64,000 nucleotides of DNA from Spartobacteria bacterium (lineage in GTDB: Bacteria; Verrucomicrobiota; Verrucomicrobiia; Chthoniobacterales; UBA6821), in contig CANIVT010000007.1 of NCBI GenBank assembly GCA_947471565.1, positions 6,909 to 70,908 of the forward strand, given 5' to 3'. The notes under the pieces are model-generated. The model had not been told where the DNA came from. It saw nothing but the letters and a program-made list of their open reading frames with translations, and did not search any database. A program made the translations under genes and the position numbers. Each line of letters opens with the position of its first letter. The first letter of the stretch is position 1. This document shows, piece after piece, positions 3,428 to 62,740 of the stretch.

Positions 3428-4114
3428 ATGACCGAACACAATCCCGCCACAAACAAACTCACTGAAATCGCCTTCATCCTCGACCAGTCGGGTTCCATGG
3501 AATCCATCAAACAGGGTACCATTGAGGGTTTTAATGCGTTCCTCTCCCAGCAACAGGAGGAGAATGACAAGTATCCGGCCCTCTTTTCGCTTACCCTTTT
3601 CAATGCCGGCATCAACGAAGTCATCACTTCGGAACCGGTGGCGAAGGTCTCTACTCTGGACTCCCACAACTACAGACCTTCGGGTGGAACGGCCCTTCTC
3701 GATGCCATCGGACTCACCATCGACAGCCTCGGCAAGCGCCTGGCAGAGACACCTGAACCCGATCGCCCCGCGAAGGTCATTGTGGCCATCATGACCGATG
3801 GCGAGGAGAACTCCTCCAGACAGTTCACCTGGACTCAGGTCAGTGACAAGATCAAGCACCAGAGTGAGGTCTACAAGTGGGAGTTCCTCTTCATGGGAGC
3901 CAACCAGGATGCGATTGCGACGGCCTCGCGGATCAGCATTGATCGCGATAGTGGAGTGAACTACTTCCAACAGGACGGCAGCGCCAGGAAAGTACTCCGC
4001 GCCATGAGTGCCTCGGTCCAATACAGCAAGCGGGCACCCAGGCCACAATGGTCTAAACCATCGTTGCAGGAGATCATGGCCGAGGAAGAGGCCAAGGATC
4101 AGTCCAAGCAGTAA
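3428..4114 (+). CDS. vWA-domain (MIDAS) protein
   Basis: ILDQSGSM, GGTALLDAIG, IMTDGEENSS, FLFMGAN. Confidence 0.9.
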   Translation: MTEHNPATNKLTEIAFILDQSGSMESIKQGTIEGFNAFLSQQQEENDKYPALFSLTLFNAGINEVITSEPVAKVSTLDSHNYRPSGGTALLDAIGLTIDSLGKRLAETPEPDRPAKVIVAIMTDGEENSSRQFTWTQVSDKIKHQSEVYKWEFLFMGANQDAIATASRISIDRDSGVNYFQQDGSARKVLRAMSASVQYSKRAPRPQWSKPSLQEIMAEEEAKDQSKQ

Positions 4115-43026: not shown

Positions 43027-44856
43027 TCAATGCGCCGAGCCTTCCGATTTCTCAGGATAGCATTCGGCCATCTTGGTCAGAAACTCCTCAAGGAAGAGGT
43101 GGAGGTCCGTCGTGATGTCCTTAACCTGGACGCTCAGATAGTTGTAGCCGAAGAGCGCAGGGATCGCGACGACCAGACCGCAGACAGTCGCCAGAAGCGC
43201 GGCCGCGATACCTGGAGCGATGGCGTTGATGTCCACCTCTCCGAGCATGGCAATCTCGCCGAAAGTAATCATGACGCCGATGATGGTTCCCAGCAGGCCG
43301 ACATAGGGACCGCCGGCGATACAGATCGTGAGAAGGACCATCATGCTCTGGAGCCTTGCGTTCTCACGTGTGATCTGGGCACTCATGCTGGCCTCGATGG
43401 CCTTGACGGAACGGTGGGCAAGCCCCTTGCCTTCAGCAACCCTAAGGCGGATTTCCTGACAGCCAAGATGATAGACCCTGTAGATAGGGGTGGAGTGGAT
43501 GAACTTGATATGAGCCGCCTCGGCTTTTCCACCCAGGGTGGCCACGTGCTCGTCATCCTCGGTGTCGAGCGAAAGGAGCTCCCCCCGCAGGTGATGCCAC
43601 TGGTTCATGAACTCCTTGGACCCCTTGGCCATCGAGGAGATGTACTGGTTCTTGGCCACCATCACGATCCAGCTGATGGCCGACATGATGCCGAGGATCC
43701 CGATCACCACCCATGCGTCGAAGGTGACCGATTTGATCAGATAGCCAAAGAGTCCGAGGCTATCGAGGAAACTTACCTTGGCGGCCTCCGGCTTTCCTGG
43801 GACGAGAAGCTTCGCGTTCTGTTGGCCCTGACCGAGGGCGGCTAGCTTGATGAAACCCGCGGAGCGGGCGGACTTGGAAATTTCCATCTCGTCGACTTCC
43901 CCCTTGAAGGAGGCTTTCCCCTCCTCCCCTCCGATGAAGGCTGCACTATTCAGAGCCGGAATGGCAACCGGCAGATTGGCGACCGCATTGCCGTCGACAT
44001 AAAGCGTCGTGCGGGTGCCGTCCGAAACCAAGGCAAGATGCTTCCAGGAACCGGCCGCCAGCGGGGCTGCCGGGGTCGAGCGCTGGTTGCCGGCGGCATT
44101 CGTGATCTCGAAGAAGGGAGCGCCGCTATCGAGGCCGATTTTAAGCCCATTGGCCCCGTCCTTGCGGCTGTAGATGATCGCATTGGGATCGAGTGAGGTC
44201 GGCTTCACAAAGCTCATCCAGGTGTAGGGAGCCGACTCAAGAACGGCCGAGTTGGGGTTTGCCGGGATGCTGATCGGCTTCTTTCCATCGAGTTTGATGC
44301 CGCCCCCGATCATCGATCCCTCGACAGGGATGCCGGGCGTCTCGGCGCGGACACCGTTTCCGGAGGAATCGCCCGGAGGAGTGCCGTGCTCGTTGAAATG
44401 ATAGACCGAGACTGTGTCGGCATCATAGGCCGTCTTGGGGAGGTCGGTCTTCTCTCCCTTGGCTGGTTTTTTCTTCTCGTTACGGCCGTAGTAAAGGTAG
44501 ATGTCGCGGGACTGGCCGGGCTTGATGTCGGGGATCTTGACCCAGACGAAGCCCTCGTTCATGACCGGATCAAATTTCTCAATCTGGGAGGCAAGAAGCG
44601 TCTTGTCATCGGAGTCGACGAACCGGAGATCCGTACCGTCCTCCTTGCACTGGGAGAAATCGAGGACCCCGTCGTGAAGACGGACCAAGACGGTGGCCGT
44701 TCCGGCAGCATCAGGGAGAGGGACCCCGTTGTCGGTCGTATCAACAGTGAATTTCTCGCGGGCCGCCCAGGCCTCGTTCCACCAGGTGCGCGCGTGGAGC
44801 GAACCAGATGCCACAAGCATCAGGGAGAGCAGAGAGAGCAGGGATCGTAATTTCAT
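43027..44856 (-). CDS. DUF2341 + LamG-like + MotA/TolQ/ExbB fusion
   Basis: DGTDLRF..WVKIP; WKHLALV (LamG); GPYVGLLGTIIGVM..APGIAAALLATVCGLVVAIPA. Confidence 0.9.
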   Translation of the reverse strand: MKLRSLLSLLSLMLVASGSLHARTWWNEAWAAREKFTVDTTDNGVPLPDAAGTATVLVRLHDGVLDFSQCKEDGTDLRFVDSDDKTLLASQIEKFDPVMNEGFVWVKIPDIKPGQSRDIYLYYGRNEKKKPAKGEKTDLPKTAYDADTVSVYHFNEHGTPPGDSSGNGVRAETPGIPVEGSMIGGGIKLDGKKPISIPANPNSAVLESAPYTWMSFVKPTSLDPNAIIYSRKDGANGLKIGLDSGAPFFEITNAAGNQRSTPAAPLAAGSWKHLALVSDGTRTTLYVDGNAVANLPVAIPALNSAAFIGGEEGKASFKGEVDEMEISKSARSAGFIKLAALGQGQQNAKLLVPGKPEAAKVSFLDSLGLFGYLIKSVTFDAWVVIGILGIMSAISWIVMVAKNQYISSMAKGSKEFMNQWHHLRGELLSLDTEDDEHVATLGGKAEAAHIKFIHSTPIYRVYHLGCQEIRLRVAEGKGLAHRSVKAIEASMSAQITRENARLQSMMVLLTICIAGGPYVGLLGTIIGVMITFGEIAMLGEVDINAIAPGIAAALLATVCGLVVAIPALFGYNYLSVQVKDITTDLHLFLEEFLTKMAECYPEKSEGSAH

Positions 44857-44874: not shown

Positions 44875-46659
44875 TTAAAATTCACCGAAGAGGCGGAAAG
44901 TGATGAGAAGCGAGTTGGCCATATTAAAGTAGCTTGACCTCGGATATCCCCAGGCACCTGCATTGGGATCCGGTGAGTTGACAGGATTCAGACTGATCAT
45001 CGGAATGCCAGCATCGATGGAGGCGTTGAGATAGTCTGTGATGCGGAGTCGCGTGCCCCCGCCATAGCTCGCCATAGTATATTGTGTGTCCGAAGTGAGG
45101 AGATTGCCGTCGTTGGAACTCGTGGTTCCCGGAGTGCCGTCCAGCAAGGTGCCGAAATCCAGGAATGCGTAGAACCTCCATCCCGTGATCCCACAGTGCC
45201 CCTTGAGAATCTCCGGTGAACGCAGTTCGATGCTTCCGAACGCGGCGCTGTCACCCAGTGCAGTCGCCTCAGTGTAGCCTCGGCAGCTGTCCAGACCTCC
45301 CGCCACGAACTGCTCCGTGAAGATGAGAGGGGTCGGCGACCACTGTCCCTGGAACTTACCGAAGATCTGGAACCCGCCGGGCAAATCGTGCGTATGCGAC
45401 AAATCACCCCGGACGGCAAAGAAACCTCCCCCAACAGTCTCATCGTCGAACTGGCCCTCGTTGGCATTGTAAGAACCGAGCCCATACACCGGGATGGTCT
45501 GTCCACGGATACCGAAGGAGAATCCTCCGTCAAAAATGGTGACCGAATTTGAAGGCGCCCAGACCGCGGTGTAGTTAAAACGCACCGGGGAATAATTGTA
45601 GTCGTTGAGGGGCACATTTGCTCCCGTCGTGACGTCGTTATTCACATTGAGAACCTGCTTGAAGTCCATCCCGGCGGAAATCGAGTGATTGAAATCCTTT
45701 TCCGATGGCAGGCTGAAAAGAAACCGGAAGCCTGCAGTGCTGCCATTGCCGGCAACAGACCCACCGCCGAGCGTTGAAAGACTGTTCTGTTTCCCGTAGG
45801 AAACATTCAGCTTCAGCCAGTCCACAGAAGGAATCCTGGCGGTATAGAAAGTATTCCAGTTCTGCACCGAGGAGGGATCCTGGGGGGACATCTGATAAGA
45901 TCCCCCGATCGAGTGACCTGCCTGCCATAGATTGTCGTAACTCCCCGCAAAGTTGAGTCGCAACGGGGGAGAACCATTGTTCCAGCGGTTGTTCAACTCA
46001 GTGCTGCCGTGCAATGGCAGGGTATCCTTGACCTTAAGATTCACGTCGACCGTTCCGGGTTCAAAACCAGGCGTCAGGGTCGGAATCACCTGTCGGTCAC
46101 TCCATTGATTGAGCGCCAGGATTTCCTTGGAGACCTTGTTAAAATCAGGAACTGACCCTGGCTGCAGTGAGGGCACCTGCTTCTTGATGGAGTTGATCGT
46201 GAAGTAACGGGAACCCTCCACGTTGAGGCGCCCTACTTTGGCCTCTTCGACCTGAAGGAAGACGATGCCCCTTTTGCCCGTCTGCTGGGGAATCTGAACA
46301 TTCACAGTCTGGAAACCCTTTTCCTGAAAGGCCTTTTCCAGTGCAGCACGGGCATGCTCGACATCATCGGGAGTCCTTTCAGGACCCATAAAGGGATAGA
46401 CAGCCTTCTCGACCTCGGTGCGGCTCAGTTGGTGATTGCCCAGCACGCGGAACTCCCGGATGTAGAGCATCTGGTTGCGGTCGACCGCATTGGTCGGCAT
46501 CCCGGTCGGGGAATCCGCCACCTTGGGAACAGCAGGAGGCTCATCGCCTAGGGTCTCCCACGTGGCGGCAAGCCCGCTGGACAGAATCAAGCATGCTGCA
46601 AGACCAACCCCTGCAAAGGAGATGGCTCGGCGCTGAACTCTGTATTTGAGGTGAGGCAT
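44875..46659 (-). CDS. ShlB/FhaC/HecB (TpsB) Omp85-family transporter
   Basis: POTRA_2 (FRVLGNHQL..FQEKGF..IPQQ), barrel GLDSCRGY, C-terminal LFGEF. Confidence 0.92.
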   Translation of the reverse strand: MPHLKYRVQRRAISFAGVGLAACLILSSGLAATWETLGDEPPAVPKVADSPTGMPTNAVDRNQMLYIREFRVLGNHQLSRTEVEKAVYPFMGPERTPDDVEHARAALEKAFQEKGFQTVNVQIPQQTGKRGIVFLQVEEAKVGRLNVEGSRYFTINSIKKQVPSLQPGSVPDFNKVSKEILALNQWSDRQVIPTLTPGFEPGTVDVNLKVKDTLPLHGSTELNNRWNNGSPPLRLNFAGSYDNLWQAGHSIGGSYQMSPQDPSSVQNWNTFYTARIPSVDWLKLNVSYGKQNSLSTLGGGSVAGNGSTAGFRFLFSLPSEKDFNHSISAGMDFKQVLNVNNDVTTGANVPLNDYNYSPVRFNYTAVWAPSNSVTIFDGGFSFGIRGQTIPVYGLGSYNANEGQFDDETVGGGFFAVRGDLSHTHDLPGGFQIFGKFQGQWSPTPLIFTEQFVAGGLDSCRGYTEATALGDSAAFGSIELRSPEILKGHCGITGWRFYAFLDFGTLLDGTPGTTSSNDGNLLTSDTQYTMASYGGGTRLRITDYLNASIDAGIPMISLNPVNSPDPNAGAWGYPRSSYFNMANSLLITFRLFGEF

Positions 46660-50652: not shown

Positions 50653-53600
50653 CTAGAGGGAAGCCTGAACCGGAGGCTGGCTGGCATTAGCTGACTTCCT
50701 TTCCTCTTCCTCCTCATCTCCTCCATAACCAAGGATGTCGATCGAGAAGACGGAGGGAGGGGGATCGGCCTGGGCAGGAGATGTGTTCCGGGCAGTGTTT
50801 GCCGACGCGCTGTTGGCGGCCGCGGTGGCTGCCGTCGCACCCGCGGGCGGTGCGGCGGGTGGTGGCGCGGTGATCGGCCCTGCAGAAGGAGCCACAGGAG
50901 GCGCTCCGACCGTCACCCCTCCGACAAGGATGTTATCGGCATTGCGGATTTCGCGTGCAGAGAGGTTCAGATTGCCGGTCGACCTGATTCCTGCGTCGCC
51001 CGCATCGATGAAACCGCTCGGGGCGATGAGATCCACGTTGCCGGGGGGAATCCCTGCAACGGCCGCCAGCACGCCGATGCCGCCACCGGTGGCCAGACCC
51101 GCAAGATCGGTCCTCACGGCCGCGCTCTGGGGATCGAGCAGGACACGGGTCGGCGGTGCGGACTTGATCGTCTTGGACGACGAGCCGGCGGCGATGTCCC
51201 CCTTGTCGGACCAGATCATGATGTCCCCCCCCCGGAGCGTGAAGATACGGCCGATTCCCAGCGTCACGCTGTCACGGCTGAACATGTTCACGCTTCCTCC
51301 TCCTTCACTCACGATTCCCGGAGGAGCAAGGCTGCTTCCCACTGAATATTCAGCGAGCGCAACGCCCCCTCGGGGCGCCAAGACACTGATATCCCCGCCG
51401 CTCTTGGTCCGGATGTTCCTTGAGTTGAGAATGACACCCCCTCCCGATGCGACTCCGGGGAACAGGGATTCGATGGCAACTCTCCCCTGCCTGTATGTCC
51501 CGAAGTCCTTGGAGCGGGGATCACCGTGGTTTCTCCCAGAATCGCGCAGGATGACATAGAAAAGGGAGAGGGCGATCCTTGACTTCGCGTCCTCTTCGAT
51601 CGGCGAGGTGATGATCCCCGCGATCGATCCCGCCCTGTCGAGTTCCTCGGACAATGATTTGTCTCCCTGCGCCGACACAACCCTCATGAGTTCCGCGAAG
51701 TAAGCCTGCGCCGAATCCATCCCCGCCGCCCTGCGAAGCAGCCCCTCCGTATCCGATGCCCCGAGCCCAAGCTGCCGCGCCGACGCGAGTCCGGCCCCCA
51801 CGATGAGCGAGGCCCCTTCGAAGGGAAGTGACGGATTGCGCGCGTTGCCGATGCTGGTGATCCCGGCGCCGCTTCCGTCGGGTCGGGCGTCACCCGTCCC
51901 GAGATCAAGGTTTTCCCCCGCAAAAACCTGGAGGGTGCCCGGACCGCTGATCTGAACGTCGCCGGAGAGCGGTTCGGGCAGGAAGGCCACGTTGGCGCCA
52001 AGATCCTTTCTGGCCTCGTTGCGGGATGCCGTGTTGGCATCAAAAAGCGTCATCCCCCCCCCTGAGATCACCGAGCTGACATCAGATGATGACACATGTT
52101 GCAGGGCTAATGACACGTCCCTGATATTGCCGGTGGCCACAATACGGGCCAACTTGGGGGAGAACAGCCGGATTCCTGAAATGTCTCCACCGGGGGAATA
52201 AACCCTCACGGGATCGGAATCGCCCAGATGCAGCAGGGACTGGTCGTGCCTTAGGACTTTTCCCTGCAACGAGGCGTCATCGCCTTCCGTCGAGAGTGTC
52301 TCGTTCAGAGAGGTCGAGAAATTCTCGAGGTAGAACGGCAGTGTGGAGTAACTCGAATTCGCATTCAGATACGTGGTATCCAGTGCAGGCCAGAAATTAA
52401 GTTGAGACTGAGAGAGGGGGGAGAGAGGCGATGGGATTGTCCTCGGGTCGGCATCGGAGACATTCAGTGTCGAATAGGACCACCTGACCCCCTTTTGCTG
52501 TCGGTTCAAACCATTGATTCCATCCATCGCATAGATGGAAAGGTTTCCCCGTGCGGAGGGAGCGAGGGTTGCATCACCTTGGATCAGGACACTGCCGGCC
52601 AGGGCGGTGAGCGACACGTTGCCGGGCATCAACCGCGCCCCGGCTCCAAGGATCGGGTCAGCGGGTTGCAACTCGGCAAGCCTGAGCCATGGCTGATAAT
52701 ATCCGGCACTCTGCGGTGGGGCCTGATTCCCCATCACTGAGGACTGCAGCCATTTCTGAAATGCAGGAAGCCCCAGGATCTGGTTCCTGAGCGTTACGGA
52801 ACCTCCGAGGGAGATCGCGGAAAAAGCGCTCTCCGACCCGTACGTTGAGAAGTAGTTCTTGTACTGGACGCCGTTAATGAATCCTTGGGGGAGAAGAAAA
52901 ACATTTCCAACGGGTCCCAAAAGCATGTCGCCGCCCGCCTTCACCGAAATCGCCCCCCTTCCCAAGAGGAAAGAGGTGGGAAGCCATGTTTCCTCGGAGG
53001 GATTGGCGTATTCGGAGCGGCGGCTTACAAGGGAATAGAGATAGGCCCCGGCCACGTCGCGTGTTTTGTTGCTGACAATCGCTCCGCCGGCGCGGATCGA
53101 GGCGTTCCCCCGTTCCACGTAATAGATGCCCGCATCGATGTTGCCCCCGGCCTGGACCGTGACATCCCCTCCGCCCGTCTCGATCAGACTGCCCTGCTGG
53201 GGGACGAGTTGGATTCCCGCGGGATCACGAGCCGTGAGCCGCCCCTGCGTGGGGACAACCGCATCCACATTGCTGATATCCCCACCCGCCCGCATGGAGA
53301 CGTTGCCGCCACCGAGCGCGCCGACATTCTGGAAAAAATTGCTGAAATCGATCCACCAGCTCGTGGAGGTGATCTCTCCGTTGGGAAGGGTGAGCCACCC
53401 GCCCGTCGCATCGGTCTGACCACGGCGCATCAGCCAGTTTCCGGGAAGTTGCCTGGAGGAATCGGCGATGTACGACAAACCGTCGCTGGAAAGTTGCAGG
53501 TGACGGATGTTTCCGGCCGCACGGAGCTGTACGTCTCCTCCCCGAACGGAATATTGAGCGGGATAAAGGGCGGGTTGCTGTAGGGTTCCGAAATTCACAC

Positions 53601-56600
53601 GCTGCGAGTTTCTGAAAATGACCGGCATCGTGTGGGGATCAAAGGCTCCCCCGAGGGTCGGGTCCGCCACCTGCGCCCCCGCGGTGTAAATCGTCGCGAA
53701 CTGGTTGAGCAGACGGATGTCCTTCCCGGCGGCGATCGAGATATCGCCTGTTCCGGTCCGGATCACCTGATAGTTGCCGCTGATGATAGTGGCGGTCGAG
53801 GCATTCTGGCCCACGCTTGAAGCAAGCGCGCTGGAGGTTTTCGTAGGTTTGCCGAGGTTGATGGAACCCTCGGATGAGACCGCGAGTGGATCGGCGGATG
53901 AAAAATCCTTGCCGGCGGCGATGGAGTAGCTCCAGGAACTCTGGCCGAATGTCTTGGATGGATCGCCTAGATCGCTCGATACCACAGGAAGCAGGGGGGC
54001 GAAGTAGAGACCGTAGTTATTGCCACCGGCATTCGCGGCCCTGTTCACACTGTCTCCGAAGCCGTCGGAAAGACTGCCGTTGAACGTGAGGTCTCCGAGA
54101 GCCCTCAGTGATAGGAATCCCGAACTCCGCCCGATCGTCCTGCCGGTGACATTCCCGGATGCATCCAGGATGCTGACCTGCCTTCCGTACCGTGCGAGGG
54201 AGAGATCCCAGTCGTTGTTCAGGACCAGCGAGCCCCTTGAATTCACGATTTCCTCCCCCGGATTGATTTCCAGTATGCCGGCCAAGGCGGCTTTCGACGA
54301 GGGATCGGCGGGGAGAATCCGTGATCGAACGGCGTCCGCATAGGCCATGAAGGAGGTGGCGTTGTCGAGAGCCTTCTGCTTGAAGCTGGTGTCTGGCGTC
54401 GCGGTCCAGTATGTACCATTAGGCGGGGTGAAGTTTCTTCCCGTTCTCTTGGCGGTGTAGAGTTGGCCATTGTAGAGGACTTTGGTGCCGGTCGTGTAGC
54501 TTGTGGTGCTGTCCCAAACTGCCGCCTGGGTATCGATCGAGGCGGTGCCGGTCGTTGCCGCGTCCTGGCGGAAGACCCCCTCGACCACGATAGCCGAAGC
54601 CCCCTCAATCGTTGTTGCGATTGGGTTCACCTGAACATCTTTGTTATCAGCAGTCTGAGGCGCTCTGAGGTGCAGACGGCCTGAGGACTGACCCAGACCT
54701 GAAACCTCATCCACGGAGAGGTCGATCACCCCTCCCCCGAGATCAATGACCCATGCATCAGAGGCAAAGGATCCGGAAACACCCATTGCGGCAACTCCCG
54801 CTGAACCGAGCGATGGGTTGTTTCCCGCTTCCAGTGTGACATATCCCCCCTTCCCGGCTGAGTCGAATTCATCCCCGCTGGCATCCAATGTCGCACCTGA
54901 CTTGAACAAGACGCTCTTCCCAGCATAGAGGCTGATATTTCCACCCGTCACTCCAGAGGCATCGATGGAACCTGTTACGGTGATGCTGCCCGAATCTGCA
55001 GAGAGCGAATAGGAATGGGCCTTGGCACCGGCGAGCGTGACATCCCCGTTGCGGATGCGAATGCCCTGCGACTCCGTGAAGCCCGACTGTGTCAGGAGGG
55101 ATTCGAGTTCGCTGAGATCACCTGTCCCGTATGTTCCAAGATCCAGAACCAGATTCCCGCTCAGACCAGAGCTTCCCGAGTGCGCAGAAATAACTCCCAA
55201 ACCGATATCTAGCGTGCCGTTGACGGCATTTACTGCAAGTGTTCCGGCCGATCCGCCATTCGCAAGGGCATCCAATCGTAGAATGGCACCATCCCCTAGG
55301 CGGACATCTCGTCCGGAGGAAAGGGTTATATTCCCGGCATCAACGTATTTGGCTAGGTCATCGAAGCGCTGGACCGTTCCGCCGACATCGACACGCGAGG
55401 AAATCACCAGATCACGGTCACTTCCCGTGGACTCGGCAACAAAGGATCCCCCGGGCAAAAGAACCGGTGCATTCAACGCGACTGCGTTGCCTCGGAGTGT
55501 CAACGAGGCCCCGAGGCCCGGATCCAATATTGTGGGCATTGTGCCTAAAAGACTCGTCGTCAGATTCCCTTGGGCGGAAAACACTGACGAGGATGCACCT
55601 TCTCCGGTGAGAGACGGAGCGTTCAGGAAAAGACTTCCGGCAACACTGAGGGCGCCCGTGCCCCTGCCCACAATACCGGCAAAGGCGTTGAGCGTGACGT
55701 TCTGGAAACCCGATAGCTTGATCTCGCCACGACCCCGGATCAACGTTCCCGTGTTGATGATCAGGCTTCCCCCGTTTGCGGCTAACGAACCCGAGGCTGT
55801 GTAGGGATTGTCCATAAGAACGCTTCCCGAGTCGATCGTGACCGATGACACATCATCACCCCGCAGCATGCTCGTATGAAGAGCAAGCGAACGTAGTGAC
55901 GACGAACCGATCGTGCCCGAACCCTTAAAGAATATTCCATCGCGCCCGTTCAGGGAAATCGATGCCACACGGGTGAGAGTCCGTAGAAAATCGCCGCCGA
56001 TCTGCATGGTATCAGCGGCCTTAGATGCATCGCCGAAGGAGAGGACAATTTTTCCGGCGTTGAGATTCAATCCCTGTGCATCAAACCTCACACTCTCAGC
56101 AACGTCACCTCCTCCGGAGGAATCAAGGGTCACGGAACCCCCGGAAACCGAGACTTGCTCGCCGAGGTCGTAGCCGCGCACAGGCGCCGTGCCAGTCCCC
56201 GAGCGGGTCACGATGGCCAGTGGATCGGAACTCACGCGAATCAGCGCGCCGTTTCCCGAAACCTCGAGATCCTCGGCTTTCATGGTGCCGCGGGATTCAA
56301 TCGCAGAACCATCCTCAAGGACGACCCCTCCACCCGAAGCAAGGATCAGATCGGATGCCGCCAGAGGTGACACCGAGTTCTCCACGGTGACCAAGGAGGT
56401 CATGGGAGCGACACTAAAACCAGAGCCGGTGACTTGGCGCACTCCCCCGATAAGCAGACTGCCCGCATTCCAGGAACTCAGGACCGAATGATCAAGCAGG
56501 ATCGCGGCGGGATCCGGTGTTCGTCCGATCCTGAAATTCGCGGTGCTGGCGAGATCGATCATCGCACCCCTTCCGCCGTTTGAACCGGCGCCCTCCACCT

Positions 56601-59600
56601 TGCCGCGCAGGTTCATGGAGTCCGTAGCCCGGATGATCAATCGGGCGGCATCCTCAACCGGTGCCGTGTCGGAGGTTCGCGGAAGAAAGGTCGAAGCTAA
56701 GGAAATCTGATACTCGGCACGGCGGGAAACAAGGGATGGAGACGCCACTTCATAGAGAGAGGAAAGCTGTTCTCCTTTGCCGTCCAGCGAACTGGATCTG
56801 CTCCCGGCGACCATCGCCGAACCATCGGGTCGCTGAAGACTGTCGGGGGCAAGATCCTGCATGAGACCCATGGGAGTGATCAGGTAGGCACCGGGCATGA
56901 TGGCGTAACGTGACGGGAGCAGGGTATAGATCCCGGCAGCGAGACCACCGCCGGCAGCGAGCGTAATCCGATCTCCAACGCCAAGCGATCTGGAGACATA
57001 TCCCGGATCACCCGCCGTCTTGTTGACATCACCGAAGGGGGCAAATGGCTGCGCCAAGGGGTTAAAGCCGGGAATGACCGCGTAACTCTCCCGAACCCGG
57101 CTCCAGTAAGAACCCACAGCAGGTGTTTCCCCACTGTTGTCCTGCCTCGCCGAGTAAATATCCCCGTCGAAAACCACACGGTCTCCCTTAAAGTAGGCCG
57201 TGGAACTGCTCCAATCACCTCTGGACTGTCCGGCAGGGTCGATTGTGCCGCGAAGACCACCAATCCAATCGTATGCCATCAGGTCCCCTCCACCGGAAAG
57301 AAGGACCCTTGATGTTGTCCCCGTGATGACCTGCCCGGCAGAAAGCGTGACTCCCCTGGCAGGGAGCCCTGAAACGCTGATGTCATTGCCAGCAGGATCG
57401 ATCCACTGGGAACCGTTGAGGATCACTCCGTAGGGCATCGTGACTCCCCTGCCTGTCACGACATCGATTCCCGAGACCGATGTCGTTCCGCCGTCCTCAA
57501 GACGCACTACGGATGACACCGGGACGGTGGTCTCCACAGGAATTGGATCGGTGTCATAAAGGCGTACAATACCTGCACCCGTTAGCGGATCCTCGGGCGA
57601 TGATCCCGAACCATCCCATCCCAGCTTGATCATACCGAAGGGGGCGACCATCGTTCCACCCTGACTGATCGAGTGGGCGTAAACCGAGATGTTCCCTCCC
57701 GCCGTAAGAGGCAAGGATCCGGGAACACCGGCCTGCTCCACGAGGACCGATCCTTTGGTCTCCCCGCGGTCATAGGAAACCAGGTTGAAGGAGGCTTTGG
57801 TCATGGGATAAATCATACCGGCAATAAGCTTGAGCTGACCGGCCATGGAAAAGGTCCCGTTACCGCGAATTTCACCCGGACCCGCATCAACGGTCACGCT
57901 ACCCATTCCCTTGACCAGCGTGTTGCCAAGATCCGCAACACGAGCCCGGATCACGAGGGATCCGGTACCGCCTGAGGGGGAGTCATATCCCCCCAGGGCA
58001 AGTCTGGACCGGCCGTCCCCGGGGGCAAGCGGAGCCTCAAAGAAATTTCCCACGGAGACATAGGGAGACAAAAGTTGCACCGCGGCATCCCCCGAGATCA
58101 CTCCTCCCGAGGCAACCGAGATGCTCTTGTCAGCGGCAAGCGAAACTGGTCCTAGAAAACCGAGATTTCCTGAAAGAACAAGGCGGTCAAATTGCCCCCG
58201 GTCAACGATGTCAGCCGACAGGTACCCTCGGCTGATCCGTCCTGTCAAATCACTGGCCATGACTCCAGCAAGCCCCTCTTGGTTTTGCGAGATGAAAAGA
58301 CTTGTCCCAAAGATCACGGAAGGGGGAGAGGCAAAATCCAACGGGTAGAACGTACCGGAGGATACCGTTAGCTGGCCACCGGAGGCGGATGACCCTCCGG
58401 CTAGGGCAAGAAGATCACCCTTGGCAACAAGGTACTGATTCCCCAAAAGTGTGATCGCTCCTCCATCTGAGGCGATGTTTCTGGTTTGGTAGGGGAACGC
58501 CCCCCCGGATCGAACGGACACGCTTCCGGAGGAACCCGACACATCGACGACCGATCCTTGAGAAAGGCGGATGTTACCTGTCATGGAAACTTCGCCGCCG
58601 CGAAGCACCGAGGCCACCGAGGCCACCGCGCGCCCGATCATCCCGGGATCGCCGATCGAAAAAGTGGCTCCGGCGGCGGAGACCCTTGCGGTCGCGCCCA
58701 GTTCTAGGGTCGGCTTGGCAAACGGCGCACCGCGCACCGGATCATAGTTGTCGGGATAGGAACTCGCTGCAGATAGGGTGATGCTGCCGCCTGGCACATC
58801 GAGCATTCCATCAACACTCGTGATCTTTCCTGTGACGGCAAGTCTTGAGGTCTTTACCAAAGGGGTGACGGAACCCATTTCTGTGAGCGAAAGTTGAGGA
58901 TCAAGCCTGATTGATGCTCCGCTTTGGATGAGGGTCCTACCCCTCACCGAAATCAATCCACCGCTTGAAATACCCAGCGCACCTAATGATACGCTGACTG
59001 CCGGTCGCATTCCTTCAGGCAGCAGAACCATTGAGTAGTCTCCGTTCGGTTTCAGGATGCGGTTAATCACGGCCGGGTGAATCATAGTTCCTGCCGTGAC
59101 AAGCATGCCCGGCATCTCATCGTCCGACGATCCTTCCGCAACTGCGACACCGATGCCCGAGAGGCTGAATTCCGCAAAACCTCCGTTGTTAAAAAATTCG
59201 GGACGGAGGCCAAGAATACCCGCTACATAACCTTCATTTCCGATACGTATGGATGGAGCAGTCAGTGACAAGGAGCCGGCATTCGCGTTCAGGCCAGCAT
59301 ATCCCTGCAGCGTGGAGTTGAGATTGAGTACCCCTCCACCGAGGGTTCCGTATTGTGCATCGACTCCTCCCGATATCTTTATCTTACCGGCATCCCCGTA
59401 AACGACTTGTCCTGCTGTCGTGAGCAGATAGGCGCCGGAAACATCGACAAGACTTCCCTCATCCAGCGATACACGGAAGCCCTCCACGGACACTCTACCT
59501 CCATCCGATGCAACAGGAGAGGAATAGGGGTCGCCCCAGTTGCTGGACGGTATTCCTGCCGTGGACAAGACAGCGGAAGGTCCGATTAGAACCCCTCCTC

Positions 59601-62600
59601 TCGATGCGTTGCCCAGCGATGGGAAGGAACCCGCATCCTCGTACGAACGGATCTCGTCGTAGCCAAAACTATTCGCCGACAGCGATATCGTACCGCCTGG
59701 CACCGACACCCTTCCAAAGATGTCAATGTTGCCGGCAGAGAGTTCAAAGCGACCTCCCGGTGCCATGGAGAGATCCGTCCCCACAGGCAGCAGGATCGAG
59801 CCGTCATGGTTGTCGATGTTGAGCGAACCGATCCCTCCTTTCGAAAAATACGAGGTGGAAAGAATGATCCTGCCGTTGTCGGAAGCGGCCCCGGGATCCT
59901 TGGAAAAGACCAACTGCTGTGGCTGCGGCGACTCGAAACCACCGTCAGGCCTTAGGCTGAAAACACGTAGCGTCAGGCTCGATTGTCCCGGCAAAGCACT
60001 GGTTTCGGGTGTGGAGCGTGTCTGCCTTGCCCCCGAAACAACGAGGCCCGTCATCGTTCCAGCAAGCTCCATGGAGGGGGACCTGAGCAATACCGATCCC
60101 CCGGCGCCCCCGCTGATATAGGGGGACTCGCGTACAGGCTTGGGATTTTGCACGAATCCGGCATAAAAGCGGTCGGGCGTCGCCTTGGAGATATCCACGA
60201 CCGTTCCCTGGCTTGTGAGTAGTTTTGTTGTGGTGAATTCCCCGCCCGAGTACTGGATCCATCCGCCCGAGACGTTCAGCAGGGAATCCCGGGCCAGACT
60301 GAGCCTGTCGCCGGATCCCAAGGAGATATTCCCACCCTCAACGGTCAACTCGCCGACCGTCCTCTGGATCAGCGATGCGTAACCCGTGGCATCGCCCAAG
60401 GGTGTGCCGATCCAATACTGCCCGTCATACACGCCGCTGATCCGCGCATCGACCGTGATGTTCTTTGCCCGGACAATGCTCTCGCGCTGAAGGGGCGAGT
60501 TGGCCAACTCCGGTCCGCGCAACTGGAGTGTGATGAAGTTTTTTGAACTTTCAACGCGCACCGAGGTCGAGCCTGAGACATCAATCACGCTACCCTCGCC
60601 CAGGGTGATGCTTCCCCCGTTACCTCCTCCGTAAGAACCAGATAAAAATTGGCTTTTGTCAACGGAAGACGAATCACGGTACCAGTTGCCGCTCAGGATG
60701 CTGACCCCCGCCTGAATCGTTGCCGCGGCGGACCCGCGGGCAACCGATGTCATGTCGAGAAAAGCGGTGCCAGAACCGACCTTCGCTCCCGGCGCGACCA
60801 ACACGGAACCTGCGTCGAGGCTCACCCGGTTTCCCAGAATGCTGATCAGCGAGGGCAGTGCCAGCGAAGTTCCGGGTGCTGTTTCCAGGCTGTCCCATTC
60901 CGGCAACAGCCTGATGACTCCGGTTCCCATCATCCTAAACGATCCGGAAGTGCCGTCCGAAACGGAGTGGTCGTAGTAATAGGGGCTCCCCAAGGAATTT
61001 GCCGAAACCGCCGCGTTATAGGATGAGACGATATCCACCCTCCCGTTGAGGGAGACCGAGGTCGTTCCGTCGATCACACCGGAATGAGTAATGGATGACC
61101 CGGCAAGAGCGGTGTGTCCCCTGGGAATCTCGATCAATCCGGCATTGAAGACGGTGCCGGCATTGTTTCCTCGGGGCGCATTGAAATCGATCAGTCCGTC
61201 AGCGCCCAGTTTCGGACCATTGTCGATGCTTCCCCCGGAAGAATCGGAGATCCTCCCGATGTAGACATCCAGACCGCGCAGACTCGGATCATCGGATGGG
61301 TGCGCGGCCAATCCCACCTGGAGTCCTGCTGCGAGGATCGTCTGCCCGTCGGGCGTCGCAATCGTTCCTGAATTGGCAACGCTGGCCCCTACGAGCGCCA
61401 CACGACCTCCGATCTTTGAAGACGAGGATGGGGAGTAAATCAATGCCCCCCGCTCCGCAATTACTGCTCCGACATTGGCAGCTGCAATCGATCCGGAGAT
61501 ATCGGATCCAGAAGACATATCTGCAGAGAGCGGCTTCGAGAGGTTGATCATTACGGAGCCGTCATTGTTTGCGGATACGGAAACCACTTTGGTTCCGGTT
61601 TCGATTCCGGATCCCGTGACGGAATCCCCAGGCCTGTAAGAACTGGCCGGAGCAACCGTGATCGATCTGTCCCCTGTTACCGCGCGGGAAGCGAGCGTCG
61701 TCGAAAGGGGATCGAATGAGTCGGAACCCGCCCGCGAGGCACCCGATGGCAAGGCACTGAAAAGGAACTGGTATCCCGGATTGTTCAATAATCCGACCCC
61801 CTCGATCCCCTTCATGGGATCACCTGCGAAGTAGGGGTTGATGGGGAGGGTGGAGGCAACCAAAGAGTGGACATTCACCTCGGAGCCGTTGTGGAACATG
61901 ATCCCGTCCTGGTTGAGAATATAGACCTGCCCCCTCATGTTCTCGGTTCCCGGAGTTCTGCCCCCTGAGGTTATCCTTCCGTAGATGCTCGAGGGGGAAG
62001 CCGTGCCCGTGATCTTGTTGAAGGCAATCCACTTGCCGGCATCCGCACCGCCCCTGCTCTGGTCGAAATTCACCGTGGTTCTCGGACCCACATTGAAATT
62101 CTTCCAGTAGAGATAGGCATTCTGCTCCGTCTGGGTGATCTCGACGTTGTGGTCTCCCGAGGACTGAAGACCGGTCTTGTCCGCATTGATGGATGCGCCC
62201 TTCCATGAGGTGGTCAGGGGCTTTCCGGCACCATCAAAACCATCGTGCGGGTGAAGCCAGTTGACCGCGAGGCCATTGGGGATTGGTTGCCCATTTGGGA
62301 GTAGAGGGGTACCTGAGCGCGCCGCTGCCTTGGCTGCGGCGGCGGCGTTCTGCTGCATGGCCCTCATGGCACCGACAGCCGTATCCGACCGCTCGATCGA
62401 CTTGCGGGCGAGGGCCGCTGTCATCGCGGCAGAGGCCGCACCGGCATTCTGAAGATTGGAGGCCGCGCCGCGACCGGCAGTTCCTGTGGCCGATCCACCT
62501 GTCGTTCCCAGCGTGATGGCCAGGAGAGGCTTTCCTGCCCAGGGCAATAGCACAAGCACCCAAAAAGCAAAGACGATCGATGTGGTCGTCTTTGCTTTTT

Positions 62601-62622
62601 GAGTTATCCTTTTTGGGTGCAT
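50653..62622 (-). CDS. giant filamentous hemagglutinin-like TpsA (TPS domain + DUF3739 C-terminus), ~3,990 aa
   Basis: signal peptide; AYLYWKNFNVG..VYILNQDGIMF; beta-helix repeats; GGDIMIWSDKGDIAAG..GNVDLIAPSGFIDAGDAGIR; alternative start at 62637. Confidence 0.93.
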   Translation of the reverse strand: MHPKRITQKAKTTTSIVFAFWVLVLLPWAGKPLLAITLGTTGGSATGTAGRGAASNLQNAGAASAAMTAALARKSIERSDTAVGAMRAMQQNAAAAAKAAARSGTPLLPNGQPIPNGLAVNWLHPHDGFDGAGKPLTTSWKGASINADKTGLQSSGDHNVEITQTEQNAYLYWKNFNVGPRTTVNFDQSRGGADAGKWIAFNKITGTASPSSIYGRITSGGRTPGTENMRGQVYILNQDGIMFHNGSEVNVHSLVASTLPINPYFAGDPMKGIEGVGLLNNPGYQFLFSALPSGASRAGSDSFDPLSTTLASRAVTGDRSITVAPASSYRPGDSVTGSGIETGTKVVSVSANNDGSVMINLSKPLSADMSSGSDISGSIAAANVGAVIAERGALIYSPSSSSKIGGRVALVGASVANSGTIATPDGQTILAAGLQVGLAAHPSDDPSLRGLDVYIGRISDSSGGSIDNGPKLGADGLIDFNAPRGNNAGTVFNAGLIEIPRGHTALAGSSITHSGVIDGTTSVSLNGRVDIVSSYNAAVSANSLGSPYYYDHSVSDGTSGSFRMMGTGVIRLLPEWDSLETAPGTSLALPSLISILGNRVSLDAGSVLVAPGAKVGSGTAFLDMTSVARGSAAATIQAGVSILSGNWYRDSSSVDKSQFLSGSYGGGNGGSITLGEGSVIDVSGSTSVRVESSKNFITLQLRGPELANSPLQRESIVRAKNITVDARISGVYDGQYWIGTPLGDATGYASLIQRTVGELTVEGGNISLGSGDRLSLARDSLLNVSGGWIQYSGGEFTTTKLLTSQGTVVDISKATPDRFYAGFVQNPKPVRESPYISGGAGGSVLLRSPSMELAGTMTGLVVSGARQTRSTPETSALPGQSSLTLRVFSLRPDGGFESPQPQQLVFSKDPGAASDNGRIILSTSYFSKGGIGSLNIDNHDGSILLPVGTDLSMAPGGRFELSAGNIDIFGRVSVPGGTISLSANSFGYDEIRSYEDAGSFPSLGNASRGGVLIGPSAVLSTAGIPSSNWGDPYSSPVASDGGRVSVEGFRVSLDEGSLVDVSGAYLLTTAGQVVYGDAGKIKISGGVDAQYGTLGGGVLNLNSTLQGYAGLNANAGSLSLTAPSIRIGNEGYVAGILGLRPEFFNNGGFAEFSLSGIGVAVAEGSSDDEMPGMLVTAGTMIHPAVINRILKPNGDYSMVLLPEGMRPAVSVSLGALGISSGGLISVRGRTLIQSGASIRLDPQLSLTEMGSVTPLVKTSRLAVTGKITSVDGMLDVPGGSITLSAASSYPDNYDPVRGAPFAKPTLELGATARVSAAGATFSIGDPGMIGRAVASVASVLRGGEVSMTGNIRLSQGSVVDVSGSSGSVSVRSGGAFPYQTRNIASDGGAITLLGNQYLVAKGDLLALAGGSSASGGQLTVSSGTFYPLDFASPPSVIFGTSLFISQNQEGLAGVMASDLTGRISRGYLSADIVDRGQFDRLVLSGNLGFLGPVSLAADKSISVASGGVISGDAAVQLLSPYVSVGNFFEAPLAPGDGRSRLALGGYDSPSGGTGSLVIRARVADLGNTLVKGMGSVTVDAGPGEIRGNGTFSMAGQLKLIAGMIYPMTKASFNLVSYDRGETKGSVLVEQAGVPGSLPLTAGGNISVYAHSISQGGTMVAPFGMIKLGWDGSGSSPEDPLTGAGIVRLYDTDPIPVETTVPVSSVVRLEDGGTTSVSGIDVVTGRGVTMPYGVILNGSQWIDPAGNDISVSGLPARGVTLSAGQVITGTTSRVLLSGGGDLMAYDWIGGLRGTIDPAGQSRGDWSSSTAYFKGDRVVFDGDIYSARQDNSGETPAVGSYWSRVRESYAVIPGFNPLAQPFAPFGDVNKTAGDPGYVSRSLGVGDRITLAAGGGLAAGIYTLLPSRYAIMPGAYLITPMGLMQDLAPDSLQRPDGSAMVAGSRSSSLDGKGEQLSSLYEVASPSLVSRRAEYQISLASTFLPRTSDTAPVEDAARLIIRATDSMNLRGKVEGAGSNGGRGAMIDLASTANFRIGRTPDPAAILLDHSVLSSWNAGSLLIGGVRQVTGSGFSVAPMTSLVTVENSVSPLAASDLILASGGGVVLEDGSAIESRGTMKAEDLEVSGNGALIRVSSDPLAIVTRSGTGTAPVRGYDLGEQVSVSGGSVTLDSSGGGDVAESVRFDAQGLNLNAGKIVLSFGDASKAADTMQIGGDFLRTLTRVASISLNGRDGIFFKGSGTIGSSSLRSLALHTSMLRGDDVSSVTIDSGSVLMDNPYTASGSLAANGGSLIINTGTLIRGRGEIKLSGFQNVTLNAFAGIVGRGTGALSVAGSLFLNAPSLTGEGASSSVFSAQGNLTTSLLGTMPTILDPGLGASLTLRGNAVALNAPVLLPGGSFVAESTGSDRDLVISSRVDVGGTVQRFDDLAKYVDAGNITLSSGRDVRLGDGAILRLDALANGGSAGTLAVNAVNGTLDIGLGVISAHSGSSGLSGNLVLDLGTYGTGDLSELESLLTQSGFTESQGIRIRNGDVTLAGAKAHSYSLSADSGSITVTGSIDASGVTGGNISLYAGKSVLFKSGATLDASGDEFDSAGKGGYVTLEAGNNPSLGSAGVAAMGVSGSFASDAWVIDLGGGVIDLSVDEVSGLGQSSGRLHLRAPQTADNKDVQVNPIATTIEGASAIVVEGVFRQDAATTGTASIDTQAAVWDSTTSYTTGTKVLYNGQLYTAKRTGRNFTPPNGTYWTATPDTSFKQKALDNATSFMAYADAVRSRILPADPSSKAALAGILEINPGEEIVNSRGSLVLNNDWDLSLARYGRQVSILDASGNVTGRTIGRSSGFLSLRALGDLTFNGSLSDGFGDSVNRAANAGGNNYGLYFAPLLPVVSSDLGDPSKTFGQSSWSYSIAAGKDFSSADPLAVSSEGSINLGKPTKTSSALASSVGQNASTATIISGNYQVIRTGTGDISIAAGKDIRLLNQFATIYTAGAQVADPTLGGAFDPHTMPVIFRNSQRVNFGTLQQPALYPAQYSVRGGDVQLRAAGNIRHLQLSSDGLSYIADSSRQLPGNWLMRRGQTDATGGWLTLPNGEITSTSWWIDFSNFFQNVGALGGGNVSMRAGGDISNVDAVVPTQGRLTARDPAGIQLVPQQGSLIETGGGDVTVQAGGNIDAGIYYVERGNASIRAGGAIVSNKTRDVAGAYLYSLVSRRSEYANPSEETWLPTSFLLGRGAISVKAGGDMLLGPVGNVFLLPQGFINGVQYKNYFSTYGSESAFSAISLGGSVTLRNQILGLPAFQKWLQSSVMGNQAPPQSAGYYQPWLRLAELQPADPILGAGARLMPGNVSLTALAGSVLIQGDATLAPSARGNLSIYAMDGINGLNRQQKGVRWSYSTLNVSDADPRTIPSPLSPLSQSQLNFWPALDTTYLNANSSYSTLPFYLENFSTSLNETLSTEGDDASLQGKVLRHDQSLLHLGDSDPVRVYSPGGDISGIRLFSPKLARIVATGNIRDVSLALQHVSSSDVSSVISGGGMTLFDANTASRNEARKDLGANVAFLPEPLSGDVQISGPGTLQVFAGENLDLGTGDARPDGSGAGITSIGNARNPSLPFEGASLIVGAGLASARQLGLGASDTEGLLRRAAGMDSAQAYFAELMRVVSAQGDKSLSEELDRAGSIAGIITSPIEEDAKSRIALSLFYVILRDSGRNHGDPRSKDFGTYRQGRVAIESLFPGVASGGGVILNSRNIRTKSGGDISVLAPRGGVALAEYSVGSSLAPPGIVSEGGGSVNMFSRDSVTLGIGRIFTLRGGDIMIWSDKGDIAAGSSSKTIKSAPPTRVLLDPQSAAVRTDLAGLATGGGIGVLAAVAGIPPGNVDLIAPSGFIDAGDAGIRSTGNLNLSAREIRNADNILVGGVTVGAPPVAPSAGPITAPPPAAPPAGATAATAAANSASANTARNTSPAQADPPPSVFSIDILGYGGDEEEEERKSANASQPPVQASL

Positions 62623-62740
62623 ATTGGCCACTAACAATTATGCGAGAACCCATGATAAATCAACTATATAATCAGTCGTTTATTCAGGGGTTCATTCTCA
62701 CCACAAAATCATAAACTCAGGCATGATCACGGGAGTCTCC

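Follow-up and report, generated by a model that had tools for sequence, protein, structure and literature searches.

The window, a 64,000-nucleotide stretch from the 2.28-Mb assembly of a freshwater member of the Verrucomicrobiota, encodes at 50653-62637 a predicted giant secreted two-partner-secretion exoprotein (TpsA) of the verrucomicrobial DUF3739 family, and within this protein lie two short modules related to the carbohydrate-binding module (CBM) families 5 and 12 (Table 1). Both inserts are CBM5/12 modules by descent and by fold, on the joint testimony of profile hidden Markov models (HMMs), predicted structures and Foldseek comparisons. Judged from their sequences, they belong to a large CBM5/12-like subclass that lacks the consecutive aromatic pair of its relatives (hereafter pair-less) and turns up often in phage tail fibres and in surface proteins with many repeats; they are not expected to bind crystalline chitin with the high affinity of the classical type. 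The explanation that we favour, and to which we give an even chance, is that they would serve as accessory ligand-recognition modules, probably for a glycan, shown in the loops of a modular TpsA fibre.

The assignment to CBM5/12 starts from the Pfam profile CBM_5_12 (PF02839; gathering score 26.2 bits). It gave 37.1 bits over two matched stretches when the whole protein was scanned, and the modules scanned singly also scored above the gathering score, with E-values of 1.3e-6 for module 1 and 7.2e-7 for module 2. A six-frame scan of the entire genome returned just these two matches. Two inserts fitting the CBM5/12 pattern had been pointed out in an initial annotation made from the sequence letters, which proposed the Pfam scan as a check. 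Both peptides are present exactly as it gave them, both modules pass that scan and match the fold, and its regular expression matches nowhere else in the 3,994 residues; its coordinates (57094-57216 and 54400-54519) are right within a few bases and agree with the insertion units described below. Module 1 keeps the core residues W1809, Y1815, G1818, V1821, G1825, Y1828, A1830, P1839 and W1845, with equivalents in module 2, and the core residues are at least 90% conserved across 54 homologous TpsA modules. For the core aromatics (Y1815 and W1845 in module 1, Y2714 and W2744 in module 2), each position is conserved in 54 of 54; the corresponding residues of CjCBM5, Tyr265 and the C-terminal Trp299, are part of the hydrophobic core (PMC8449059). 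Sequence searches of the PDB gave weak E-values only, as expected for domains of 40 residues: the closest match of module 1 was to residues 28-77 of gp124 of phage Milano (E = 0.013), and module 2 matched the chitin-binding domain (ChBD) of ChiC, 2d49, with E = 3.9e-4. It was the fold search that settled the fold.

Module 1 was modelled with AlphaFold2 from the alignment of the 54 homologous modules, and the model has three short strands with a predicted local distance difference test (pLDDT) score of ~90 over the module. Foldseek superposed it on S. griseus ChiC (1wvv) with a root-mean-square deviation (RMSD) of 1.3 Å over 41 columns and on the isolated ChBD 2d49 with a template-modelling (TM) score of 0.68; further matches were Vibrio chitin deacetylases (1.2 Å), Serratia ChiB and Moritella Chi60 (MmChi60). 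Nearly all of its PDB fold matches are CBM5/12 domains, and the model also resembles CBM5/12-like domains in phage tail fibres, in phage baseplates and in a contractile injection system from a cyanobacterium. Module 2, modelled within its 281-residue context (mean pLDDT 84, predicted TM score 0.79), is likewise built of three strands at a pLDDT of ~90. It matches 2d49 with an RMSD of 1.3 Å and 41% identity over 44 aligned columns (TM 0.74), and the CBM12 of B. circulans ChiA1 (1ed7) with a TM score of 0.73. Both predicted models match the compact antiparallel beta "ski-boot" fold of ~40-45 residues.

In the context model, module 2 is preceded by beta strands and followed by three helices and then by more strands, and insertion of the modules into a beta-rich scaffold is supported. 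To this extent the model agrees with the initial annotation, which had placed the inserts in the TpsA beta-helix; site 2 itself falls, in the model, where a beta-strand block meets the three helices, and does not look like part of a regular coil. The N- and C-termini of CBM5 are adjacent (PMC8449059). With its two ends side by side, a module can therefore occupy a loop without breaking the scaffold.

The alignments show each module to be a clean insertion of ~44 residues at a fixed site. A homologue search with residues 1700-2800 as the query yielded 438 proteins, nearly all of 3,700-4,000 residues and, wherever the organism name was informative, all from Verrucomicrobiota. The flank-to-flank distance, measured in 120 homologues, is bimodal at site 1 (5-6 or 47-62 residues). 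At site 2 most homologues have 0-10 residues; the distance rises to 49 in P0003, P0004 and the window TpsA and to 90, or two tandem modules, in P0006. P0007, locally 70% identical, is without both modules, and the boundaries in the alignments are exact: by comparison with module-free homologues, insertion unit 1 covers residues 1808-1850 (57088-57216) and unit 2 residues ~2705-2750 (54388-54525).

Presence and absence of the modules were mapped on a tree built from the region between them. Of 119 proteins, 47 have the site-1 module, a distribution that takes 8-11 changes on the tree to explain; for the site-2 module the corresponding figures are 5 of 118 and 4 changes. Modules at both sites are confined to this protein and P0006 among the ~119 homologues on the tree. 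Mean identity among carriers is 0.47 for the module and 0.47 for the host protein. Since module identity equals whole-protein identity, the module appears to have evolved with its host for a long time, and recent horizontal acquisition, which we also considered, is unsupported. The patchy pattern most readily suggests precise loss or recombination on repeated occasions, not recent import. As to lineage specificity, which the initial annotation had left to an alignment with orthologues, recurrent polymorphic presence in verrucomicrobial DUF3739 TpsA proteins rules it out for the site-1 insert, while it largely holds for site 2 and for the two-site combination.

A similar distribution emerged from species-representative genomes. 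DUF3739 TpsA proteins were found there at no fewer than 508 loci, and the best 80 all come from Verrucomicrobiota, with Prosthecobacter, Luteolibacter, Brevifollis, Chthoniobacter and "Spartobacteria" among them. Of the 64 loci that cover site 1, ~7 (~11%) have the module there; for site 2 the figure is 1 of ~65. The cultured strains among the best 80 loci (Prosthecobacter fluviatilis, Brevifollis gellanilyticus and IMCC26134) are all without a module. These loci were found with the DUF3739 alignment; a search of the same genomes with a 300-residue piece of the TpsA returned no relative. The family is sporadic, DUF3739 being present in 9 of 301 sampled Verrucomicrobiota genomes, and a DUF3739 search of 14 control genomes gave no match. 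When the 301 genomes were surveyed with the module profile, mostly unrelated small CBM5/12 proteins were recovered, together with one other TpsA (G243).

The next question is whether the modules retain the means of binding chitin. Almost all CBM5 modules have a consecutive aromatic pair (Y-W or W-W), the importance of which for chitin binding was established by earlier work (PMC8449059). HMMER aligned the YTAKWW motif of ChiC to YSARQD in module 1 and to YTAKRT in module 2, with Q1832-D1833 and R2731-T2732 at the pair positions. The position preceding the pair is Arg in 42 of the 54 TpsA modules, and a Tyr or Phe is conserved just before the final Trp; the aromatics that remain in module 1 are Y1823 and Y1844. 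A profile of the TpsA modules hit 7,943 representative proteins, headed by proteins with no domain other than CBM_5_12, in which as many as 44 pair-less modules stand in tandem; in a viral structure library the module fold recurs frequently among tail-fibre, baseplate and collagen-repeat proteins. No established ligand for the pair-less CBM5/12-like subclass was found in the literature.

Some members of the representative-protein library (P0131, P0138, P0163 and P0269) consist almost entirely of tandem pair-less CBM5/12-like repeats, with up to 44 copies in 4,341 residues. One tandem-repeat CBM5/12-like protein has a weak match to Mtd_N (phage tropism determinant).

The two modules are not the only insertions in this scaffold. 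Many inserts of 40-50 residues occur sporadically in the full-length family alignment, and Pfam recognises LysM modules, which occupy no fewer than three different sites, in P0034, P0042 and P0115, and PDZ modules in P0060 and P0098. A paralogous TpsA encoded near the window is 42% identical to the window TpsA overall and 65% identical in the TPS region; it contains no CBM5/12 module and carries a LysM domain (24.7 bits; cut-off 20.9) at the position matching residue 2334. P0006 also adjoins a second TpsA, which has no CBM_5_12 match on record. It is possible, if doubtful, that verrucomicrobial DUF3739 TpsA proteins form a modular display platform in which small recognition modules, among them pair-less CBM5/12-like, LysM and PDZ ones, are time and again gained, lost or exchanged at fixed loop sites. 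If so, the paralogous fibres of one locus would differ in their modules (CBM5/12 twice here, LysM in the neighbour), and the platform would diversify the targets to which the cell sticks, as phage tail fibres or the receptor-binding domains of CdiA do. The pair-less subclass would then have a specificity other than chitin, possibly an anionic or bacterial surface glycan recognised via the conserved Arg.

Further sporadic inserts were seen in P0033, P0042 and P0115 at site 2, in P0043 and P0071 after the position matching residue 2801, and in P0096 and P0109 near residues 1572-1640. They include a double insert at site 2, made up of an unassigned module of ~60 residues followed by a degenerate CBM5/12-like one, and repeat blocks of 216 residues. 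An extra CBM5/12-like module stands at a third site in P0096 and P0109. In the window TpsA itself, the lineage-variable insert that comes shortly after the TPS domain (TGTKVVSVSANNDGSVMINLSKPLSAD) has a core of 43 residues common to few homologues (P0019 and P0033) and is absent from the paralogue.

How, then, might the modules work? In the explanation that we favour, two self-contained modules of ~44 residues with the CBM5/12 fold are spliced into fixed sites of a beta-rich scaffold and would recognise a ligand, probably a glycan, on the secreted fibre, where avidity would probably help binding. The leading candidate ligand would be a polymer containing N-acetylglucosamine (GlcNAc): chitin from the environment, peptidoglycan of other bacteria or a GlcNAc polysaccharide made by the cell itself. 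Glycan binding is still plausible because LysM occurs in relatives and in the paralogue of the same locus and because a CBM2-GH18 enzyme is encoded in the genome. A GH18-like/CE4/GT2 fusion protein encoded on contig C15 and the aromatic residue kept just before the final Trp also favour a glycan ligand. The initial annotation had the adhesin tether the cell to chitin or other polysaccharide particles; the chitin part of that proposal is weakened by the absence of the aromatic pair from 54 of 54 modules, and a glycan in the wider sense stays plausible.

Several observations weigh against recognition of a glycan by modules set in a fibre. Aromatic residues are found at neither of the two pair columns in any TpsA module (0/54 and 0/54), and because the pair is absent from all 54, family membership alone cannot imply carbohydrate binding. 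The gp124 residues that match module 1 lie in the N-terminal tail-binding, that is, protein-docking, part of the Milano tail spike. The modules are absent from most family members and so dispensable for the core function of the protein. Finally, the flanks of module 2 gave a weak Foldseek match to a tailspike beta-helix (probability 0.57).

The first alternative, which we regard as rather unlikely, is that the modules bind no sugar and act in fibre stabilisation, in contacts between TpsA molecules or between TpsA and a partner, or as spacers. The match of module 1 to gp124, its best PDB sequence match, would fit such docking, as would the pair-less tandem arrays of up to 44 copies in proteins without an enzyme domain and the abundance of pair-less modules in phage tail-fibre, baseplate and collagen-repeat proteins. 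However, the phage tail-fibre modules may themselves recognise host polysaccharide, and the same scaffold carries LysM domains, which are glycan binders, in relatives. The conserved surface-type Arg and the Tyr or Phe before the last Trp moreover suggest a maintained interaction face, for which protein ligands would still be possible.

It is unlikely, too, that the modules are a classical chitin tether, which would bind the crystalline chitin of particles from zooplankton, fungi or diatoms and, together with the CBM2-GH18 enzyme, anchor the cell to them. Their family and fold are those of CBM5/12, the genome encodes a secreted enzyme with two CBM2 domains and GH18, and LysM, another binder of GlcNAc polymers, is present in relatives; however, the W-W or Y-W pair is missing from both modules and from all 54 of the family, the genome contains no CBM5/12 beyond these two, and its GH18 enzyme is equipped with CBM2 instead. 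One lead is Phe2736 in an N-F-T-P motif, which we take to match the key Trp of the ChiA1 CBM12 (G-W-E-P), but this residue is Asn in the orthologous site-2 modules of P0003 and P0004.

Quite improbable is a self-made matrix tether resembling CdrA, in which the modules would bind a GlcNAc exopolysaccharide produced by the cell's own GT2-CE4 enzyme and would either attach it to the cell or hold the matrix together by cross-links. The membrane GH18-like/CE4/GT2 fusion, with its Chitin_synth_2 match and QRFRW motif, could supply the polymer, and of the two TpsA paralogues of the locus one carries LysM and the other CBM5/12; the product of this C15 fusion is, however, only predicted, and its gene is unlinked to the TpsA locus.

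A chance motif or annotation artefact is barely credible: the modules are short (37 residues) and score only 2-3 bits above the Pfam cut-off, but the protein has two independent matches and the rest of the genome none, confident models match CBM5/12 structures at 1.3 Å, 54 homologous modules share a conserved core, the insertion boundaries are clean, and independent assemblies give the same sequence, so that HMM, fold, homologues and repeat assemblies together refute chance and assembly artefact alike. In particular, an assembly artefact is unlikely because the same TpsA protein was found on four contigs and a fragment holding both modules, 100% identical, on a separate contig of 7.4 kb.

The remaining features of the host gene and its surroundings are listed in Table 1. 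The open reading frame of the TpsA gene begins with TTG; its likely start is the ATG at 62622, five codons in, and the recorded product (P0122) has 3,989 residues. A hydrophobic segment was seen at the N-terminus of the translation, and TIGR01901 (haemagglutinin N-terminal domain) was the sole match in an NCBIfam scan of the protein.

Table 1 Features of the TpsA locus and related genes of the same genome (window coordinates unless a contig is named)
Feature	Position	Strand	Residues	Remarks
TpsA exoprotein gene	50653..62637	-	3,994	Open reading frame from TTG; Pfam TPS, DUF3739 and CBM_5_12 (two matches); TIGR01901
TPS secretion domain	61819..62172	-	156-273	PF05860, 56 bits; TIGR01901, 50.9 bits
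Lineage-variable insert shortly after the TPS domain	61492..61695	-	~315-382	No Pfam family
Module 1, CBM5/12-like	57103..57213	-	1809-1845	WSSSTAYFKGDRVVFDGDIYSARQDNSGETPAVGSYW; Pfam, scanned alone, 28.7 bits
Module 2, CBM5/12-like	54406..54516	-	2708-2744	WDSTTSYTTGTKVLYNGQLYTAKRTGRNFTPPNGTYW; Pfam, scanned alone, 29.6 bits
DUF3739 C-terminal domain	50899..51231	-	3803-3913	PF12545, 105 bits
TpsB transporter, ShlB/FhaC type, presumed partner	44875..46659	-		PF03865, 60.6 bits; POTRA_2 (PF08479), 43 bits
ExbB/MotA-family protein fused to N-terminal DUF2341 and LamG-like (Laminin_G_3) domains	43027..44856	-		Adjoins TpsB
Paralogous DUF3739 TpsA	C7:82613-94717	-	4,035	Open reading frame ~13 kb past the right end of the window
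Secreted putative chitinase	C38:2106-4382	-		Two CBM_2 (112 bits), Pro/Thr linkers, GH18 (44 bits)
Membrane fusion GH18-like/CE4/GT2	C15:32305-35700	-	1,132	CE4, 123 bits; Chitin_synth_2, 49 bits; QRFRW motif

Besides the genes of Table 1, the window holds genes for a TonB protein (TonB_2), a Porin_5 porin, a PEP-CTERM protein and protein F of a type II secretion system (T2SS; T2SSF). The remaining T2SS genes and the paralogous TpsA gene lie just outside it, and the two TpsA genes flank the T2SS cluster. No TonB-dependent receptor was seen among the genes scanned. A second PstS-like gene and genes for small exported proteins stand beside the paralogue (C7:98996-101253). Elsewhere in the genome, the C15 fusion is a candidate synthase-deacetylase for a GlcNAc-based polysaccharide; its GH18-like part scores below the cut-off.

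The usual picture of TpsA proteins is one of monotonous beta-helical fibres, the functional regions of which have been mapped one by one in pathogens. The present finding is not a new mechanism, and automated Pfam annotation of CBM_5_12 already exists for several homologues in public databases. A description of CBM5/12 or LysM modules in TpsA proteins was not found in the literature, general and chitinase papers being unchecked for TpsA. A large environmental TpsA family with cassette-like presence or absence of binding modules at fixed sites offers a direct handle on the targets of these ~400-kDa proteins. A Pfam CBM_5_12 match should not be read as chitin binding, and what these two modules bind would inform the whole pair-less subclass.

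Among known systems, the locus as a whole can be set beside the phosphate-starvation locus of PdtA and PdtB (PA0690 and PA0692) of P. aeruginosa, in which a TpsA of ~4,000 residues is likewise encoded next to a T2SS, a TpsB, ExbB/TonB genes and a putative porin. The order reported for P. aeruginosa is hxc-lapA-pdtA-phdA-pdtB-exbB2-exbD2-tonB4-PA0696 porin (PMC7035377), and it matches the order of the stretch compared here (window 38000-64000 together with C7:69652-81534); this likeness is one of gene order. In contrast to the pdtA locus, there are two TpsA paralogues here, and PstS-like and PEP-CTERM genes replace lapA. No report of CBM modules in PdtA was found.

In function, the nearest comparison is with CdrA-type TpsA adhesins, which are likewise large, secreted and beta-rich and have a passenger part that is said to bind polysaccharide: CdrA reportedly binds the Psl polysaccharide, as described by Borlee and colleagues in 2010. 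Unlike the modules described here, their binding regions are not known to be CBM5/12 or LysM modules, or cassettes that are present in some orthologues and absent from others. The cdrAB operon is among the two-partner-secretion systems of P. aeruginosa (PMC5422565).

The modules themselves have relatives in two settings. They share their fold with gp124 of the Agrobacterium phage Milano (8FQC), the tail fibres of phage 7-7-1 (9RKV) and cyanophage A-1(L) (8KEC). The phage modules and those of the multi-repeat CBM_5_12-only proteins are likewise without the aromatic pair and have Arg or polar residues in its place. In contrast to the phage modules, those of the window sit in a bacterial TpsA, as single copies in scaffold loops and not as tandem arrays or N-terminal docking modules. 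With the CBM5 of ChiC (2D49/1WVU), ChiB, Chi60 and the Vibrio chitin deacetylases they have in common the family PF02839, the fold of ~40 residues, the core Tyr, the C-terminal Trp, the Gly/Val framework and the Pro. Where ChiC has its exposed W-W (AKWW), however, module 1 reads ARQD and module 2 AKRT, and, unlike the CBM5/12 domains of chitinases, the TpsA modules have no disulfide and are internal inserts in a fibre of 3,994 residues rather than terminal appendages of a hydrolase.

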